Source: a virus
Strand: one strand, 5' to 3'
DNA length: 6,177 nt
IMG/VR virus record: IMGVR_UViG_3300029815_000172
Coordinates: 1-6,177 of that record
Shown: positions 1 to 6,177 of the stretch, piece after piece
How the letters are laid out: each line of letters opens with the position of its first letter
Position numbering within the stretch: the first letter of the stretch is position 1
Notes under the pieces: model-generated
Databases searched by the model: none
What the model saw: the letters and a program-made list of their open reading frames with translations, nothing else
What the model was told of the DNA's origin: nothing
Position numbers and translations under genes: made by a program

Positions 1-99
1 ACACATTAACACACCCAACGGTCGGACCATTGTTCGGAAGCTTTAAACAACAAAACGATTTCTTTTTCTGTCCTATTCGTCTATATAACGCAATGCTGC
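1..99. repeat. Terminal redundancy: exact copy of 6079..6177. Marks the circular permutation point of a 6078-nt genome.
   Basis: Base-by-base identity of window 1..99 with 6079..6177, read directly from the sequence. Confidence 0.95.
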
Positions 100-1859
100 A
101 CAATAACGCATTGAATATAGGGCTAGATATGAAACAAGTAAAATTTCCTTATGTAAGACTAACAACGTCAAACTGGGTCGACGAATATCTAGACGGCAGT
201 GCCAATACTTTGAAAAAAGAAATACACCCATCTTCATTACTCAGCTATTTGGGGTATAAAAGACTCAGAAATAAAGACTCAGACCAAGATAGAGGCTCAA
301 TACAGGTATTACCAATACTGATGTATTACGATATTTTCAAAAACTATTATGCAAACAAGCAAGAAAAGTCATTTTATCAAATAGTTGCCGATGGAAACTT
401 CATATATAGTGCTAATCCAAAGTCTGCAACAAACACCTTCTATTTCGGAGTTTACTCTAAAGTTTCCAACAAATATTCAGAAATTAAAAAAATAGGAGAA
501 AATCCTCCTTCTATCAAGTACCAAAACCCAACTGGTACGGAATATTACATAGGATTTACAGTACAAGCGAATCAACCGATAGATGAAAATTCTATCACGT
601 TGCTAATAAAAGACGCAAATTTCGACAGTAGACGATTATACAGAATTCAAGGGTCACTGCAAAGTCTTATAGAGACGGGCATAATAACAAAAGCTTCAAA
701 CTCAACAGCCTCAAATTCAGCTCTTTATATTCTAAATGAAACACAAACAACGGCAGGACAAGATGGCGCAACGAGCACAGTACACTCCTTTTTCACAATA
801 GGAAAAGTAGAAATGCAATTTTTCGGAAGCAACTATGCCAAGTACGATCTCTCCGAAATCGATGATATGAGAGAAAACATACTCGCAGCCGGCAGAACAC
901 CATGGGAAGCAAATAGTCCATTTATAACAGCAATTACAAAAACTATTGTAGATCCTAATAAAGGTGGAACGAAAAATAACATTCCAGCCACAGCTTTTCC
1001 AATGGTGGGACTCGTACTAAAAACCTATCAAAGCGATATCAATACAAACTGGGTTAATACCGAATGGATCGACGGAGAGACAGGAATCAATGCCATAACG
1101 GCTATCGATACAAGTGGCGGAAGCTTTACACTCGACACTCTTAACCTTGCAAAAAAAGTATATACCATGCTCAACAGAATTGCCGTATCCGACGGATCAT
1201 ACAATGCATGGATTCAAACAGTATATACAAGCGGAGGGTTAAACCATGTAGAAACACCTATATATCTCGGAGGTAGCTCACTTGAAATTGAATTCCAAGA
1301 AGTAATCAACAACAGCGGAACAGAAGATCAACCATTAGGAACATTGGCCGGCCGAGGAGTAGCGACAAATCACAAAGGAGGAAATATTGTGTTTAAGGCA
1401 GATGAACCCGGATACATATTTTGTATTACCTCTATCACTCCAAGGGTTGATTATTTTCAAGGAAACGACTGGGATATATATCTAAACACAATGGACGATA
1501 TCCATAAACCTCAACTCGACGGAATAGGGTTCCAGGACAGACTTTACAGAAACGTAAACGCTAATGTGGACCAAATAGAAAACCTCGAAAAATCAATTGG
1601 AAAACAACCGGCGTGGATAGAATATATGACAAACATCAATAGGACATATGGGAACTTCGCACTTATCGAAAATGAAGGTTGGATGTGTTTGAACCGAATA
1701 TTCGGAGAAATAGATACCTATACAACCTACATACAACCACATCTATATAATAATATCTTCGCAGACACAGACTTAACGGCACAAAATTTCTGGATTCAAA
1801 TAGCATTTAATATTAAGCCTAGAAGAGTAATGTCAGCAAAAGTTATTCCTAACATTTAA
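1..1859 (+). CDS. VP1: Major capsid protein VP1, 3' part (continuation of 5889..6177). Codons are in phase from position 3. Bases 1-2 complete the codon that begins at 6078. Stop TAA at 1857-1859.
   Basis: A 610-codon open frame, by far the largest ORF. It is in frame with the 5889 start through the circular junction. The N-terminal region carries F/VP1 hallmarks (see above). The length fits Alpavirinae-type capsid proteins with large insertion loops. Confidence 0.92.
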   Translation, partial: TLTHPTVGPLFGSFKQQNDFFFCPIRLYNAMLHNNALNIGLDMKQVKFPYVRLTTSNWVDEYLDGSANTLKKEIHPSSLLSYLGYKRLRNKDSDQDRGSIQVLPILMYYDIFKNYYANKQEKSFYQIVADGNFIYSANPKSATNTFYFGVYSKVSNKYSEIKKIGENPPSIKYQNPTGTEYYIGFTVQANQPIDENSITLLIKDANFDSRRLYRIQGSLQSLIETGIITKASNSTASNSALYILNETQTTAGQDGATSTVHSFFTIGKVEMQFFGSNYAKYDLSEIDDMRENILAAGRTPWEANSPFITAITKTIVDPNKGGTKNNIPATAFPMVGLVLKTYQSDINTNWVNTEWIDGETGINAITAIDTSGGSFTLDTLNLAKKVYTMLNRIAVSDGSYNAWIQTVYTSGGLNHVETPIYLGGSSLEIEFQEVINNSGTEDQPLGTLAGRGVATNHKGGNIVFKADEPGYIFCITSITPRVDYFQGNDWDIYLNTMDDIHKPQLDGIGFQDRLYRNVNANVDQIENLEKSIGKQPAWIEYMTNINRTYGNFALIENEGWMCLNRIFGEIDTYTTYIQPHLYNNIFADTDLTAQNFWIQIAFNIKPRRVMSAKVIPNI

Positions 1860-2355: not shown

Positions 2356-3489
2356 ATGGGATTCGGAAAATCATTTATAGCAGGATTAGGTTCCTCAGCA
2401 GCAAGTACAGGAATGGGGTTTGTCGGAAGTGCTTTAAGCCAAGCACTCGGATTAAGTTGGTCACCACAAAAAGCTATGAGAGAACAATGGAAGTACAATA
2501 AAAACATCATGGCTCTACAAAATCAATATCAACAACAAGCAGCCGCACAATCTCAACAATACGCCAAAGAATATTGGGATTACACCAATGCAGAAAATCA
2601 AAAACAACATCTTATCAATGCAGGCTTAAATCCTGCTTTAATGTACGGACAATCCGGAGCCGGAGGTATGGGAGCAAGTGGAGGAGCTCACCAAGCAGCA
2701 CCAGAACAACCGCAAGGAAATCCGGTAGGTATGGCTCTACAAGTACAGCAAATCGAACAGCAAAGAAGAATGAACGACGCTCAAATTGCATTAGCAGAAG
2801 CACAAGCCAGCAAAGCAAAAGAAGAAGCTAAAAAAATCGGAGGTGTGGATACACAGGAAGCCTTAAAACGAATTGAAGAAGCCGCTTCACGAATAGAACT
2901 TAATTTGAAAGAAGGTCATTATAAAGAGGCTTTAACAGAATTGACAAAAGCAGAAAAAGAGGCTACAAATGCACTGACATCTCTTAGAGAAATGCAAGAA
3001 GGCTTATCAAAAGCTCAAATAAGCGAAGCCTTTGCCATAGCAGGATATTATAGCGAAAAAGCTCACACAGAATATTGGAATAAAGAAAATGAAAAAATTC
3101 AAAACCAATATTTGAAAGATACCTACGAAGACAGGGTTGAAGCTGCAGCCTATAACAATGCAGTAGCCATAGCCTTAGCTGCAAAATATAAAAGCGACAA
3201 AGATGTAAATGAAAAACAAATAAAAAACCTTCAAGCAAATATCGAAGAATTACTAGCTCTTGCAGACAAGCATAATTGGGATAAAGAAACATATCGCAAA
3301 CAAGTAGAAGGTATGATTGAACGTTGGGAAGAACAAACCTTTAACGAGAGAATCGGATTAGGTCTGGAATTCGGAGACAAGATCATAGAAATGTTGCTCA
3401 AGGCGCGCGGAAAAAGAGCCAAGACAAAAACTGTATCTGAGAGACAAGGCAAAACTACAACAACAGAAACATATACAGAATCGTATTGA
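2356..3489 (+). CDS. VP2: Minor capsid / DNA pilot protein (VP2, phiX174 H-like), 377 aa.
   Basis: Gly/Ala-rich hydrophobic N-terminus MGFGKSFIAGLGSSAASTGMGFVGSAL; compare phiX174 H MFGAIAGGIASALAGGAMSKLFGG. A Q-rich low-complexity segment, the NAGLNPALMYG motif, a Gly-rich stretch, then a long K/E/A-rich predicted coiled coil. This is the architecture of microvirus pilot proteins. Follows the capsid module on the same strand. Stop TGA 3487-3489, two nt before the Rep ATG. Confidence 0.8.
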   Translation: MGFGKSFIAGLGSSAASTGMGFVGSALSQALGLSWSPQKAMREQWKYNKNIMALQNQYQQQAAAQSQQYAKEYWDYTNAENQKQHLINAGLNPALMYGQSGAGGMGASGGAHQAAPEQPQGNPVGMALQVQQIEQQRRMNDAQIALAEAQASKAKEEAKKIGGVDTQEALKRIEEAASRIELNLKEGHYKEALTELTKAEKEATNALTSLREMQEGLSKAQISEAFAIAGYYSEKAHTEYWNKENEKIQNQYLKDTYEDRVEAAAYNNAVAIALAAKYKSDKDVNEKQIKNLQANIEELLALADKHNWDKETYRKQVEGMIERWEEQTFNERIGLGLEFGDKIIEMLLKARGKRAKTKTVSERQGKTTTTETYTESY

Positions 3490-3490
3490 T

Positions 3491-4624
3491 ATGTGTCTAT
3501 ATCCTACTTTTGTTAAAAATCCAAAGTATAAACCTAACAAGAAAAATAAAGGGAACCCTCCTGTTTGTACAGACAGGAGGCTTCTCTACATACCTACAAA
3601 ATGCGGGTGTTGCATAGAATGCAGAAAGGAAAAACAACGAGAATGGAGAGTAAGATTAGAAGAAGAACTACGTACGAATTTTGGGTATTTCACTACATTG
3701 ACGATAAGCCCAGAAAAAATCAAAGAAATAGAATTAATCACCGGTTTAAAATGGGAAGAAAACCCAAACGAAATTGCAACAAAAGCTATAAGATTATTTC
3801 TAGAACGGGTAAGAAAAGATACAGGAAAGAGTATAAAACACTGGTGTGTTACAGAACTGGGAGAGAAAAAAGACAGAATACATTTACACGGTATATTCTT
3901 CGGCCAAAAAAGCGCAGAACTAATCAGGAAACATTGGAAATACGGGTTTGTGTTCATCGGGGGGTATTGTAACAGCAAAAGCGTCAACTATATGACAAAA
4001 TACATGCTAAAAGTCGATATCAAACACCCAGAATTCAAACAAATCGTACTAGCCAGTTCCGGAATCGGAGCCGGATATATGGATCGATTAGATTATTTAT
4101 GGCAAAAACAAAATTACAAAAACATCAATGTAGCTACCTATACATTCAGAAATGGTACAAAAATGGCTATGCCAAAATATTACAAAAACAAAATATTTAC
4201 CGACAAAGAACGTGAAAAGATGTGGATTAATAATCTCAATAGAGGTCTATTGTGGATATACGGAGAAAAAGTAAAAGCCGACGACTGGAAAACCATAGAC
4301 AATCTTAGAGAATATTGGCAAAGATACGGACGTGAAATAATGGGTGATAATCCTATCGCATGGAATGCCATGAAAGAAAGACGAAAAGAAGAAAAACAAC
4401 GACGAGCTATTGCAGAAGCTAAAAAACAAGCTGAAAAATTCAGCACGGAAATTCTAATAGGATTACCGTTACAGGCCGAATTTCCTATGCAGGAAAAAAA
4501 ACAAGAATGGGATAGTATCATAGAAGAATACATCAAATCCAACAAATGGACATTTGAAAGAGTGAGAAAGAGGTGCACGACCGAAGAGCACTATGACGCC
4601 TTGGGCAGGATTGGGATAGCTTGA
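3491..4624 (+). CDS. VP4: Replication initiation protein (VP4 / phiX174 A-like), an HUH rolling-circle endonuclease, 377 aa.
   Basis: RCR motif I GYFTTLTISP (about 3686-3715). Motif II (HUH) RIHLHGIFF (H-L-H at 3881-3889). Motif III with two catalytic tyrosines, VNYMTKYMLK (Y at 3989-3991 and 4001-4003; compare phiX174 A YVAKYVNK). N-terminal Cys cluster C26-x11-C38-x-C40-C41-x2-C44 (3566-3622), possibly a Zn-binding element. Confidence 0.92.
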   Translation: MCLYPTFVKNPKYKPNKKNKGNPPVCTDRRLLYIPTKCGCCIECRKEKQREWRVRLEEELRTNFGYFTTLTISPEKIKEIELITGLKWEENPNEIATKAIRLFLERVRKDTGKSIKHWCVTELGEKKDRIHLHGIFFGQKSAELIRKHWKYGFVFIGGYCNSKSVNYMTKYMLKVDIKHPEFKQIVLASSGIGAGYMDRLDYLWQKQNYKNINVATYTFRNGTKMAMPKYYKNKIFTDKEREKMWINNLNRGLLWIYGEKVKADDWKTIDNLREYWQRYGREIMGDNPIAWNAMKERRKEEKQRRAIAEAKKQAEKFSTEILIGLPLQAEFPMQEKKQEWDSIIEEYIKSNKWTFERVRKRCTTEEHYDALGRIGIA

Positions 4625-4635
4625 AATACTATCAG
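4625..4635. repeat. 11-bp direct repeat aatactatcag, copy 1, immediately after the Rep stop codon.
   Basis: Exact match to 4764..4774. The two copies bracket the GC-rich island. Confidence 0.8.
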
Positions 4636-4740
4636 ACAATAACCAGACTATATTTTTAATGTTTAAGGCGGAAAGTACTGCGTCCTTTCCTTGGTCGCTT
4701 CGCTCCATCAGTACGCTCTCGACGGCGGAGCCTGTTCGCT

Positions 4741-4759
4741 GTAAGCCTTGCAGGCTTGC
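4741..4759 (+). other. GC-rich hairpin. Stem aagcct / aggctt (6 perfect bp, extendable with G·T wobbles to 8-9 bp), loop tgc.
   Basis: Inverted repeat 4743-4748 / 4752-4757 read from the sequence. Sits at the 3' edge of the GC island, just before DR copy 2. Stable ssDNA hairpins are used as (-)-strand origins or packaging signals in ssDNA phages (established for phiX174/G4, inferred here). Confidence 0.4.
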
Positions 4760-4763
4760 GCGC

Positions 4764-4774
4764 AATACTATCAG
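4764..4774. repeat. 11-bp direct repeat aatactatcag, copy 2.
   Basis: Exact match to 4625..4635. Confidence 0.8.
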
Positions 4775-4804
4775 CGAGTGTTAAAAATGGTATTAGCATA
4801 TGTT

Positions 4805-4838
4805 AAAAGGGGATTTTTATTAGGAAAAAGGGGATTTT
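4805..4838. promoter_or_regulatory. Two exact copies of the 13-mer aaaaggggatttt (4805-4817 and 4826-4838), 21 bp centre to centre. Iteron-like or promoter-proximal regulatory repeats upstream of the small-ORF cassette and VP1.
   Basis: Direct repeat read from the sequence. A4-G4-A-T4 composition (A-tract/T-tract, likely DNA bending). About 40-70 nt upstream of the ATG at 4878. Confidence 0.45.
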
Positions 4839-4877
4839 ATCATTATCTTTACAGTGTAATCAAAAAAAAACAAAGTC

Positions 4878-5186
4878 ATGAAAACATTGTTAGTTTTAAA
4901 AAACACCGAAAGCAGAATTGCTGCAATTCGAGAATTTGAAAGCGAAAAAGAAGCCCTCAATGAGTGGAATCGCTGTTATCACAAACAAGCCTGGGAAATC
5001 GTTTATCTAAAAGAAAGACAGAAATCAGGACACAGATATGAATTAGAATATGCCAAATTTGATGAATGCGGGGAGCTATATTCAGGGTATATTATTTGTT
5101 TTTCCAAAAAAGAAGCCTTATATTTGAAAACTAAAATTTCAGAAATCAATTCAAGTTATTTATTTCGTATTAAAAAACTCTATTAA
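4878..5186 (+). CDS. Hypothetical protein, 102 aa. First gene of a small-ORF cassette.
   Basis: ATG 4878. Same strand as all other genes. Its stop TAA is 1 nt before the next ORF's ATG (translational coupling). No motif I recognise. Confidence 0.55.
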   Translation: MKTLLVLKNTESRIAAIREFESEKEALNEWNRCYHKQAWEIVYLKERQKSGHRYELEYAKFDECGELYSGYIICFSKKEALYLKTKISEINSSYLFRIKKLY

Positions 5187-5888: not shown

Positions 5889-6177
5889 ATGAAAGTAAGT
5901 ATCGGAAAAAACACCCTCGGAGGTGGTAAAAAAATGATGACACGGTTGAATAATTACAACCGTAGTACACATGATTTGAGTACAGTTGTAAGAACAACGG
6001 CGGCCGTAGGAACTTTAATACCAACATTGAAATTATTAATGCAACCTGGTGACACTTTTCCTATCGAGACCAGGTGTCACACATTAACACACCCAACGGT
6101 CGGACCATTGTTCGGAAGCTTTAAACAACAAAACGATTTCTTTTTCTGTCCTATTCGTCTATATAACGCAATGCTGC
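5889..6177 (+). CDS. VP1: Major capsid protein (VP1 / phiX174 F-like), 5' part. The ORF runs off the window end and continues in frame at 1..1859, because 6079..6177 duplicates 1..99. Full CDS is 5889 -> junction -> 1859: 2049 nt, 682 aa.
   Basis: ATG at 5889. The translation begins MKVSIGKNTLGGGKKMMTRLNNYNRSTHDLSTVVRTTAAVGTLIPTLKLLMQPGDTFPIETRCHTLTHPTVGPLFGSF. Compare the phiX174 F N-terminus (...HDLSH...TISTTPVIAGDSFEM...FTFYVPHRHVY): an HDLS motif, a Thr/Ala-rich segment, a GD(T/S)F motif, and FFCPIRLY against FTFYVPHRHVY. The frame is continuous across 6078/1, since 6078 is divisible by 3, and reaches the 609-codon ORF of the track. Confidence 0.9.
   Translation, partial: MKVSIGKNTLGGGKKMMTRLNNYNRSTHDLSTVVRTTAAVGTLIPTLKLLMQPGDTFPIETRCHTLTHPTVGPLFGSFKQQNDFFFCPIRLYNAML
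6079..6177. repeat. Terminal redundancy: exact copy of 1..99.
   Basis: As above. Confidence 0.95.

Follow-up and report, generated by a model that had tools for sequence, protein, structure and literature searches.

Comparative evidence for a conserved, modular, hairpin-forming cassette in human-gut, Bacteroidales-associated microviruses

A G+C-rich, non-coding island follows the rep gene of the microvirus genome analysed here, and comparison with its relatives indicates that this island is a conserved, modular, hairpin-forming cassette of human-gut, Bacteroidales-associated microviruses. The cassette occupies ~110 nt in this genome and ~220 nt in its fuller versions, behaves as an exchangeable module that has been swapped between distantly related gut microviruses, and is, on the comparisons given below, very probably neither an inserted element nor an integration site. 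Its function is a more tentative matter—it may be a Rep-independent, host-recognised signal for complementary-strand synthesis that can be exchanged between phages, in which case its role would lie in priming, and we regard this as a serious possibility.

The window—the whole stretch of 6,177 nt that was analysed, from IMG/VR virus record IMGVR_UViG_3300029815_000172—carries at positions 1-99 an exact copy of 6079-6177 (assembly overlap), and because of this exact 99-nt terminal repeat it represents a circular microvirus genome of 6078 nt. The long open reading frames (ORFs) all lie on the + strand, and the main features are collected in Table 1. The Rep stop codon, TGA, occupies 4622-4624, and the island starts 36 nt farther downstream; the stretch of 4625-4877 is the largest non-coding region of the genome, with rep upstream, a block of small ORFs downstream, and the next ORF starting at 4878. 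The nearest GenBank phages, faecal microviruses such as Dulem virus 224, match parts of the genome at ~70% nucleotide identity. The island itself is carried by no GenBank phage, and BLAST with it returned chance matches only. Searches of the island for tRNA or tmRNA genes, for Rfam 15 families at E values up to 10, and for protein-family matches to its candidate ORFs were all negative. The -7 promoter box of Bacteroidetes reads TAnnTTTG, and the similar box downstream of the island, TATCTTTA, may be a promoter.

Table 1. Features of the window genome in and around the island (positions are those of the window)
Feature	Position	Strand	Basis or remark
Major capsid protein gene (microvirus)	30-1859	+	protein-family match
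DNA pilot protein gene	2356-3489	+	protein-family match
Rep (replication initiation protein) gene, 377 aa	3491-4624	+	PHROG 942, E=2e-32; ORF list
First motif copy, AATA(C/G)TA(Y)CAG	4625-4635	+	exact 11-mer
Two tandem 11-nt units, CAGACAATAAC + CAGACTATATT	4633-4654	+	read from sequence; conserved in alignments
Island core, TGTTTAAGG to GCGCAATA	4660-4767	+	conserved structured cassette
Hairpin 1, GGAAAG / CTTTCC stem, variable tip	4670-4690	+	covariation
Block B, TCGCTTCGCTCC	4695-4706	+	modular; 3' of hairpin 1 in window genome
Block C, TACGCTC..ACGGCGGAGC..TCGCTGT	4712-4742	+	nearly invariant core; invariant alignment columns (74 variants)
Hairpin 3, GTAAGCCT tgc AGGCTTGC	4741-4759	+	covariation
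Second motif copy	4764-4774	+	last 7 nt inside 12-nt indel 4768-4779 (CTATCAGCGAGT)
Weak dif-like candidate, AATGGTATTAG / CATATG / TTAAAAGGGGA	4786-4813	+	likeness by eye, unscored
13-nt direct repeat, AAAAGGGGATTTT	4805-4817 and 4826-4838	+	upstream of next operon; kept as AAAATGGGATATTT x2 in relatives
Promoter-like box, TATCTTTA	4844-4851	+	one mismatch from TAnnTTTG; relatives carry TATCTTTG

The compositional contrast that first drew attention to this region is real, although somewhat narrower than the first-pass annotation had it: 4665-4780, described there as ~62% G+C, measures 57.8%, and values of 60.6-61.9% are found over 4665/4667-4763, against 36.9% genome-wide. The G+C maximum falls at 4660-4767, which holds the highest 100-nt G+C window of the genome. 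The short words reported inside the island are present, with TCGCT at 4695, 4700 and 4736, GGCGGA at 4667 and 4724, and the GC hairpin at 4741-4759. A proposed pairing of GTACTG (4675-4680) with CAGTAC fares less well; both words exist, the second at 4709-4714 and so one base from the 4708-4713 given earlier, but their pairing is not conserved across variants, because the GTACTG half sits in the variable tip of hairpin 1.

The exact 11-mer repeat that brackets the island, AATACTATCAG, was also described correctly, with one copy at 4625-4635 abutting the Rep stop and the other at 4764-4774; it has no further copies on either strand of the window genome. By itself such a repeat is unremarkable, since Markov shuffles lead one to expect ~1.2 exact 11-mer pairs less than 200 nt apart per genome. 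A direct repeat of at least 11 nt that brackets this particular island arose in 0.36% of flank shuffles (a post hoc test), and the repeat is locally non-random. Relatives with a window-type Rep 3' end carry AATAGTAYCAGACAGTAA at the position of the first copy. The tandem units that overlap this copy look iteron-like and are represented in relatives by CAGACAGTAAT and CAGACAGTATT; after the Rep stop these genomes read AATAGTAYCAGACAGTAAT and then CAGACAGTATT, again two 11-nt tandem units, and one relative (L003) has an extra duplicated copy of the unit.

How widely the island is shared was addressed with a Rep-based scan of IMG/VR, which yielded 25 close relatives, with Reps 79-90% identical, and another 19 at greater distance. 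An alignment of the stretch that separates rep from the next ORF shows the island in all 25 close relatives, and at least ~75 metagenome contigs carry it too. A search pattern built from the most conserved block (TACGCTC..ACGGCRGMRC..TCGCTGT) found no IMG/VR contigs beyond the window clade and two others; in metagenomes it matched at least 80 stretches, nearly all of them on human-gut contigs. Among the metagenome matches listed, about half lie near the 6.1-kb genome length and the rest are shorter fragments, five are unrelated chance fits to the pattern, and, those five aside, the island occurs only on microvirus contigs or inside prophages.

The structure of the island emerges from an alignment of 74 distinct variants of the core, running from TGTWTAAGG to GCAATA (4660-4767 in the window). 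Two hairpins, at 4670-4690 and 4741-4759, are maintained through compensatory changes: taken together, hairpins 1 and 3 form standard pairs in 96.6% of cells against 78.5% in shuffles, their covariation score of 0.426 compares with 0.142 in shuffles and with no more than 0.161 once the partners are slid, and 9 of their 13 pairs have changed on both sides. In hairpin 1 the GGAAA/TTTCC base is kept, 92% of the counted stem cells are paired across the 74 variants, and both-sided changes occur in all five counted pairs; its tip is wholly different in sequence and length between variants, a freedom that fits better with a structural than with a sequence-specific constraint. Hairpin 3 is paired in 99.5% of cells, with the stem variants AAGCC/GGCTT, ATTCC/GGAAT and CAGCC/GGCTG and a closing pair of T-A, G-C or C-G. 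Between the hairpins lie nearly invariant blocks (Table 1), as would be expected of a signal recognised by a protein.

Covariation support is limited to these two hairpins, and no further helix in the alignment gained any. Of two further predicted helices, ACGGC:GCTGT is invariant and so without covariation support, and the RNAfold helix GCTTCGCT:GGCGGAGC has uncompensated one-sided changes, which break the predicted pairing of block B with GGCGGAGC; a hint of X/Y covariation in block C, suggestive of a small pseudoknot, is inconsistent across types. In folding energy, 4620-4800 of the window alone is unremarkable on both strands, as DNA or RNA (z of -0.21, +0.36 and -0.81); the 74 variants on average fold better than shuffles, with a mean z of -1.86 for the + strand and of -1.59 for the - strand. 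The region is also modular, a mosaic in which block B (TCGCTTCGCTC) may lie 3' of hairpin 1, lie 5' of the island, or be missing, depending on the type, and some genomes carry a 5' extension of ~110 nt with further hairpins.

A second island-bearing lineage is made up of L054/L056/L082, L114, L151 and L159 together with the integrated copies L105 and L135. In this lineage (L056/L105), Rep and the capsid protein are 24-30% identical to those of the window, and at nucleotide level it has the cassette alone in common with the window clade—over ~220 nt it is 81-86% identical, and a core of 57-60 nt is 95-100% identical. This homology ends at GCGCAATAG, beside hairpin 3. In the second lineage the cassette has the pilot gene on one side and rep on the other, and it is antisense to every gene. 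Among relatives with a 40-70% identical Rep, nhmmer found no island homologue; several of these, including Dulem virus 224, have a non-homologous G+C-rich element after rep, which in Dulem virus 224 has 60% G+C and occupies the same place as the island. Because the cassette is common to phages with 24-30% identical Reps and absent from phages with closer ones, its function is probably not tied to a particular Rep. The direct repeats that bracket GC peaks in more distant relatives are short A-rich words only, so no general repeat-bracketed architecture can be claimed.

These properties are what a host-read replication signal might display. The cassette would act in cis on the DNA, with no need for the phage's own Rep: on the single-stranded genome, the priming machinery of the host would start complementary-strand synthesis at the cassette, and this synthesis would turn the ssDNA into the replicative form. 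Under this proposal the cassette could recombine between unrelated microviruses that share a host, because it is the host that reads it. Hairpin 3, which is palindromic, could equally be a double-stranded protein-binding site. Intergenic hairpins that are conserved through compensatory changes are known from other microviruses, where they have been interpreted, without proof, as candidate primosome sites (PMC9865509, section 3.8). The first-pass annotation had offered a structured origin or packaging signal as its fallback, and of its readings a conserved, structured, origin-type element is the best supported; structure and conservation hold, and the origin role would follow from the proposal just made.

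Several known systems offer points of comparison. The n'/PriA primosome assembly site of phiX174 and the complementary-strand origin of G4 lie in the F-G intergenic region (cited in PMC9865509). Like these origins, the island is a non-coding, intergenic cluster of microvirus hairpins that is conserved in structure, apparently independent of Rep, and plausibly read by the host; unlike them, it has been exchanged between distant lineages and occupies varied genome positions and orientations, and it has no sequence similarity to them, belongs to phages of another host phylum, and has a role that is so far only proposed. Single-strand origins of rolling-circle plasmids (ssoA, ssoU) are structured, host-specific, Rep-independent, modular and orientation-dependent elements of ~100-250 nt, and the hallmark of ssoA is CS-6, TAGCGT in a terminal loop. 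The cassette resembles them in being structured, apparently Rep-independent and modular between otherwise unrelated replicons; however, it is borne by a phage rather than a plasmid and has no CS-6 (TAGCG is absent on both strands of 4660-4780), so membership cannot be claimed. The hairpins of reekeekee- and roodoodoo-microviruses are likewise intergenic, with compensatory substitutions and a primosome role suggested for them (PMC9865509); their sequences and clade are different, and the island adds invariant inter-hairpin blocks and transfer between lineages. Finally, the island shares its phage family and, in the window clade, its intergenic region with the dif-like attP sites of temperate microviruses (BMV proviruses, PMC3091885; enterogokushoviruses); however, neither the island nor the 11-mer is the dif-like core, and in L105 the island lies inside the prophage.

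Cassette orientation follows base composition rather than gene direction. At 4-fold sites the coding strand of the window clade has A at 0.44-0.54 and T at about 0.12-0.27, and that of the second lineage has T at 0.54-0.62 and A at 0.12-0.17. Island-bearing contigs divide into 74 that are sense and A-rich, 7 that are antisense and T-rich, and 1 short contig that is ambiguous; orientation is thus constant relative to the 4-fold skew and not relative to the genes, in what amounts to two independent lineages only. Such tracking would fit a polarity-dependent replication signal, and our literature search found no description of the pattern. In the wider Rep family the coding strand is mostly A-rich (A 0.34-0.75), with L078 and L081 as T-rich exceptions. 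Known microviruses package the coding-sense strand; if both lineages do so, the cassette has opposite polarities in their virions, which is awkward for a strand-specific origin.

It is conceivable, if distinctly unlikely, that the cassette or its origin module sets which strand is displaced and packaged, and that its inversion explains the mirror-image 4-fold composition of the two lineages. The large A-rich-coding Bacteroidales microvirus clade, including the window genome, would in that case package the strand complementary to mRNA—a 'negative-sense' microvirus—and the arrangement would be a phage counterpart of the skew-reversing control-region inversions in mitochondrial genomes. phiX174 is T-rich at its 4-fold sites (T 0.61-0.63). 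The accepted explanation for T-rich ssDNA phages is that C deaminates to T on the single strand (PMC4032129), and on this basis the packaged strand might differ between the lineages. Among the controls, Chp2 is T-rich and phiMH2K, a cultured gokushovirus, is A-rich (A 0.47, T 0.23), and the latter undermines 4-fold T-richness as a proxy for the packaged strand.

Other readings of the cassette have to be weighed against a complementary-strand signal. It might work at the level of RNA, as a terminator at the 3' end of the capsid-pilot-rep operon, as an mRNA stabiliser, or as a small non-coding RNA gene. The island does lie between operons, just 5' of the promoter-like box, and its GC hairpins are stable, with the + strand folding more stably than the - strand under RNA parameters in 61 of the 74 variants. 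However, no hairpin is followed by a T-run, and a terminator scan of 4450-4950 came back empty; in the second lineage every gene lies antisense to the cassette, its differing flanks have no conserved promoter in common, and the Rfam search was negative. We therefore consider an RNA-level role unlikely.

A Rep-dependent origin of the viral strand, with a nick or termination site in or beside the cassette, seems quite unlikely. Such an origin would turn the AATA/GT junctions and the repeated motif into traces of Rep-mediated initiation, termination and illegitimate recombination. The Rep-clade-specific motif AATAGTAYCAG, which flanks the cassette together with iteron-like CAGACAGTA repeats, could be related to Rep, and the point beside hairpin 3 where cross-lineage homology stops would suit a nick site. 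On the other strand the motif reads CTG(A/G)TA(C/G)TATT, loosely recalling the phiX174 nick region, CTTG/ATATT, although this likeness is short and not significant. The distribution of the cassette across distant Reps and its absence beside much closer ones speak against a Rep-dependent origin, and if two origins in direct repeat were both functional, the island between them would be deleted, yet it is stable. The pC194/phiX-type nick heptamer, CTTGATA, occurs once in the window genome (512-518, - strand), against 1.1 expected by chance. A resemblance between AATGTTAATAACATAG of the relatives and the phiX174 origin sequence, TTAATAACA, was discarded; by a rough estimate it is a ~0.2 chance event, and it is weaker still in the window genome.

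Integration deserves a closer look, since relatives of this phage do integrate. A Rep-profile scan of species-representative genomes found, in Bacteroidales contigs, prophages whose ends carry direct repeats in a dif layout (..TATAA / 6 nt / TTATGTTnAAT on one strand); these boundaries agree with the proposal of Krupovic and Forterre that Bacteroidetes microvirus (BMV) proviruses integrate at dif sites (PMC3091885). The layout sought comprises 28 bp: an 11-nt arm, a 6-nt spacer and a further 11-nt arm that resembles TTATGTTAAAT. The prophage att sites show it, with AT-rich cores that bear no relation to the island or the 11-mer. The first-pass pointer to Xer/dif integration does bear on the neighbourhood, since 12 nt downstream of the second repeat copy there begins a weak dif-like candidate (Table 1). 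Its counterpart in relatives reads AATGTTAATAA / CATAGG / TTAAAATGGGA, and by eye it resembles the phage-side att of the prophage L071, ACAATGTTACATAA / TTACTA / TTAAGTTCACA.

The same pointer does not extend to the island or the flanking 11-mers, which are very unlikely to be a XerC/D-type attachment site for the host dif, let alone duplicated att/dif cores. Neither the 11-mer nor the island contains the arrangement of XerC arm, 6-nt spacer and XerD arm, and every clear att core is an AT-rich 28-mer that lies outside any island. In L105, a prophage with genes for SmpB, a PG_1098-type methyltransferase and a TPR protein as host neighbours, the boundaries are marked by a dif-like repeat of 31 nt (2145-2175 and 8408-8438, 90% identical), and the island at 3655-3870 is internal, ~1.5 kb from these att repeats; it lies between the pilot and rep genes both here and in L135. 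Another prophage, L070, has at its boundaries a 19-nt palindromic repeat, GTATTCGCGCCGAATACAG, similar to hairpin 3 in form; an apparent likeness of its left flank to the 3' end of the island came to nothing, as nhmmer found no island homology at the junction (E > 4). The genome scan found no integrated member of the window clade.

The 11-bp repeat itself consists of two copies of a clade-specific motif, AATA(C/G)TAYCAG, in neighbouring modules; the first copy belongs to the Rep-3' module, whereas the second is part of the downstream module, in a 12-nt piece that is optional there. In 77 distinct contexts both copies are present in 16, the first only in 25, the second only in 15 (L151 and many E-type genomes have the 3' copy alone), and neither in 21, and the island is present in all four classes, including those 21. 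The 12-nt insert (4768-4779) occurs in 31 of the 77, and the others read GCAATA/GTTAAA. Judging by the first 25 genomes, the two copies seemed to co-vary between C and G at motif position 5; the idea was dropped, since with more data 12 of 16 were concordant against ~55% expected.

It had been suggested that the repeat is a target-site duplication around a small mobile insertion, or a pair of att cores around an integrated mini-element, and an exact 11-nt direct repeat around the G+C peak (local chance ~0.4%) and a cassette that has moved between lineages, in either orientation relative to the genes, might invite that view; it is scarcely credible, because the copies vary independently of each other and of the island, which excludes paired sites of either kind, the second copy is an indel polymorphism, the first is separated from the conserved island start by a 24-nt AT-rich stretch and does not abut it, the limits of cross-lineage homology do not match the repeat positions, no empty site occurs among at least ~100 relatives (25 from IMG/VR plus metagenome contigs), and no chromosomal copy outside prophages appears among the metagenome matches listed. 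Relatives thus share the G+C-rich segment with neither empty-site variants nor host matches beyond prophages.

Alpavirinae-like microviruses rank with the most common phages in the human gut, and to our knowledge no replication signal has been defined for these Bacteroidales-associated phages; the cassette is a concrete candidate for the host-dependent step of their replication. We infer that the island is an intergenic signal of the replication type, structured as in other ssDNA phages, to which exchange between lineages and an orientation that tracks strand skew are added points. Gene transfer within the microvirus family is considered rare (PMC3394797); the exchange of the cassette between lineages at 24-30% protein identity shows that non-coding modules do move between microviruses. 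The search for the dif-like attachment site of the window clade has been narrowed as well. The flip in strand composition, should it reflect packaging polarity, would call for a different reading of these genomes.

Direct repeats fitting the pattern ..TATAA–6 nt–TTATGTTnAAT bound five integrated microviruses on Bacteroidales contigs (L071, L072, L077, L079, and L105). The XerC-type arm and spacer are identical between the two attachment (att) copies of these prophages, and divergence falls in the XerD-type arm—a pattern shared with other phages whose recombination relies on Xer enzymes of the host. Near the island, the conserved GC-rich hairpin cassette 3' of rep, a weak dif-like candidate (a XerC arm, 6-nt spacer, and XerD arm layout) resembles, in a by-eye comparison, the phage-side att of prophage L071. 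Words of the form GTTAA(A) are also repeated around this candidate, at a spacing of roughly 10–13 nt. Coordinates of the features discussed here are collected in the table.

Candidate attachment and regulatory features
Feature	Coordinates	Sequence	Remarks
Dif-like candidate, weak	window 4786–4813	AATGGTATTAG–CATATG–TTAAAAGGGGA	likeness judged by eye; counterpart in relatives AATGTTAATAA–CATAGG–TTAAAATGGGA
Boundary repeat of prophage L070	L070 3041–3059 and 9113–9131	GTATTCGCGCCGAATACAG	exact 19-nt GC-rich palindrome
13-nt direct repeat	window 4805–4817 and 4826–4838	AAAAGGGGATTTT	AAAATGGGATATTT in relatives
Promoter-like box	window 4844–4851	TATCTTTA	TATCTTTG in relatives

Among the integrated relatives, the closest Rep (63–69% identical) belongs to L070, a prophage in a Phocaeicola metagenome-assembled genome; its boundaries are formed by the palindromic repeat and not by a dif-like core rich in A+T. 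Beyond the left repeat copy, the adjoining 80 nt on its left side have a high G+C content and a loose resemblance to the 3' end of the island; homology between these two stretches found no support with nhmmer. A GC-rich element (~60% G+C) also lies 3' of rep in Dulem virus 224 (L166, 4650–4870), with a 9-nt word, GTGATCTCC, close to each of its ends. This element matches the island in position, is not homologous to it, and contains CCGCTTCGCTACC, which is similar to TCGCTTCGCTCC of the island.

The 13-nt repeats are followed just downstream by the promoter-like box, which is similar to the Bacteroidetes -7 promoter box, and then by the ORF at 4878; the repeats and box are likely a promoter or operator of the small-ORF operon.

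The window itself spans one whole circular genome, 6078 nt long, plus an assembly overlap, read as such from an exact 99-nt terminal redundancy (positions 1–99 equal 6079–6177). Two contigs, L108 (8384 nt) and L153 (7512 nt), exceed the length of a single genome, and each has a pair of capsid genes that differ in how closely they match the window (60% and 91% for L108; 89% and 49% for L153). Neither contig is a simple concatemer; they may be co-assembly chimeras, or heterodimers linked via common non-coding sequence. In the relative L003, the entire region of the first copy of the 11-nt repeat, directly after the Rep stop, is tandemly duplicated (AGTACCAGACAGTAATCAGACAGTA; L003 2930–3000, aligned to window 4625–4655), which shows a stretch prone to copy-number change. 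The Rep match of the IMG/VR relative L017 (3710–4825) contains an in-frame stop codon, which may be a sequencing error or mark a defective genome.

Strand composition was compared at 4-fold degenerate coding-strand sites (window; L001–L044, L070–L082, L105, L114, L151, L159, and L165–L168). These sites are A-rich in the window clade and most of the wider Rep family (A 0.34–0.75). They are T-rich in the second lineage that carries the island, as well as in L078, L081, phiX174, and Chp2. One cultured phage, phiMH2K, is likewise A-rich, so a tie between skew and packaged strand remains putative. Across island-bearing contigs, island orientation tracks the skew—sense islands accompany A-rich sites (n = 74), and antisense islands T-rich sites (n = 7).
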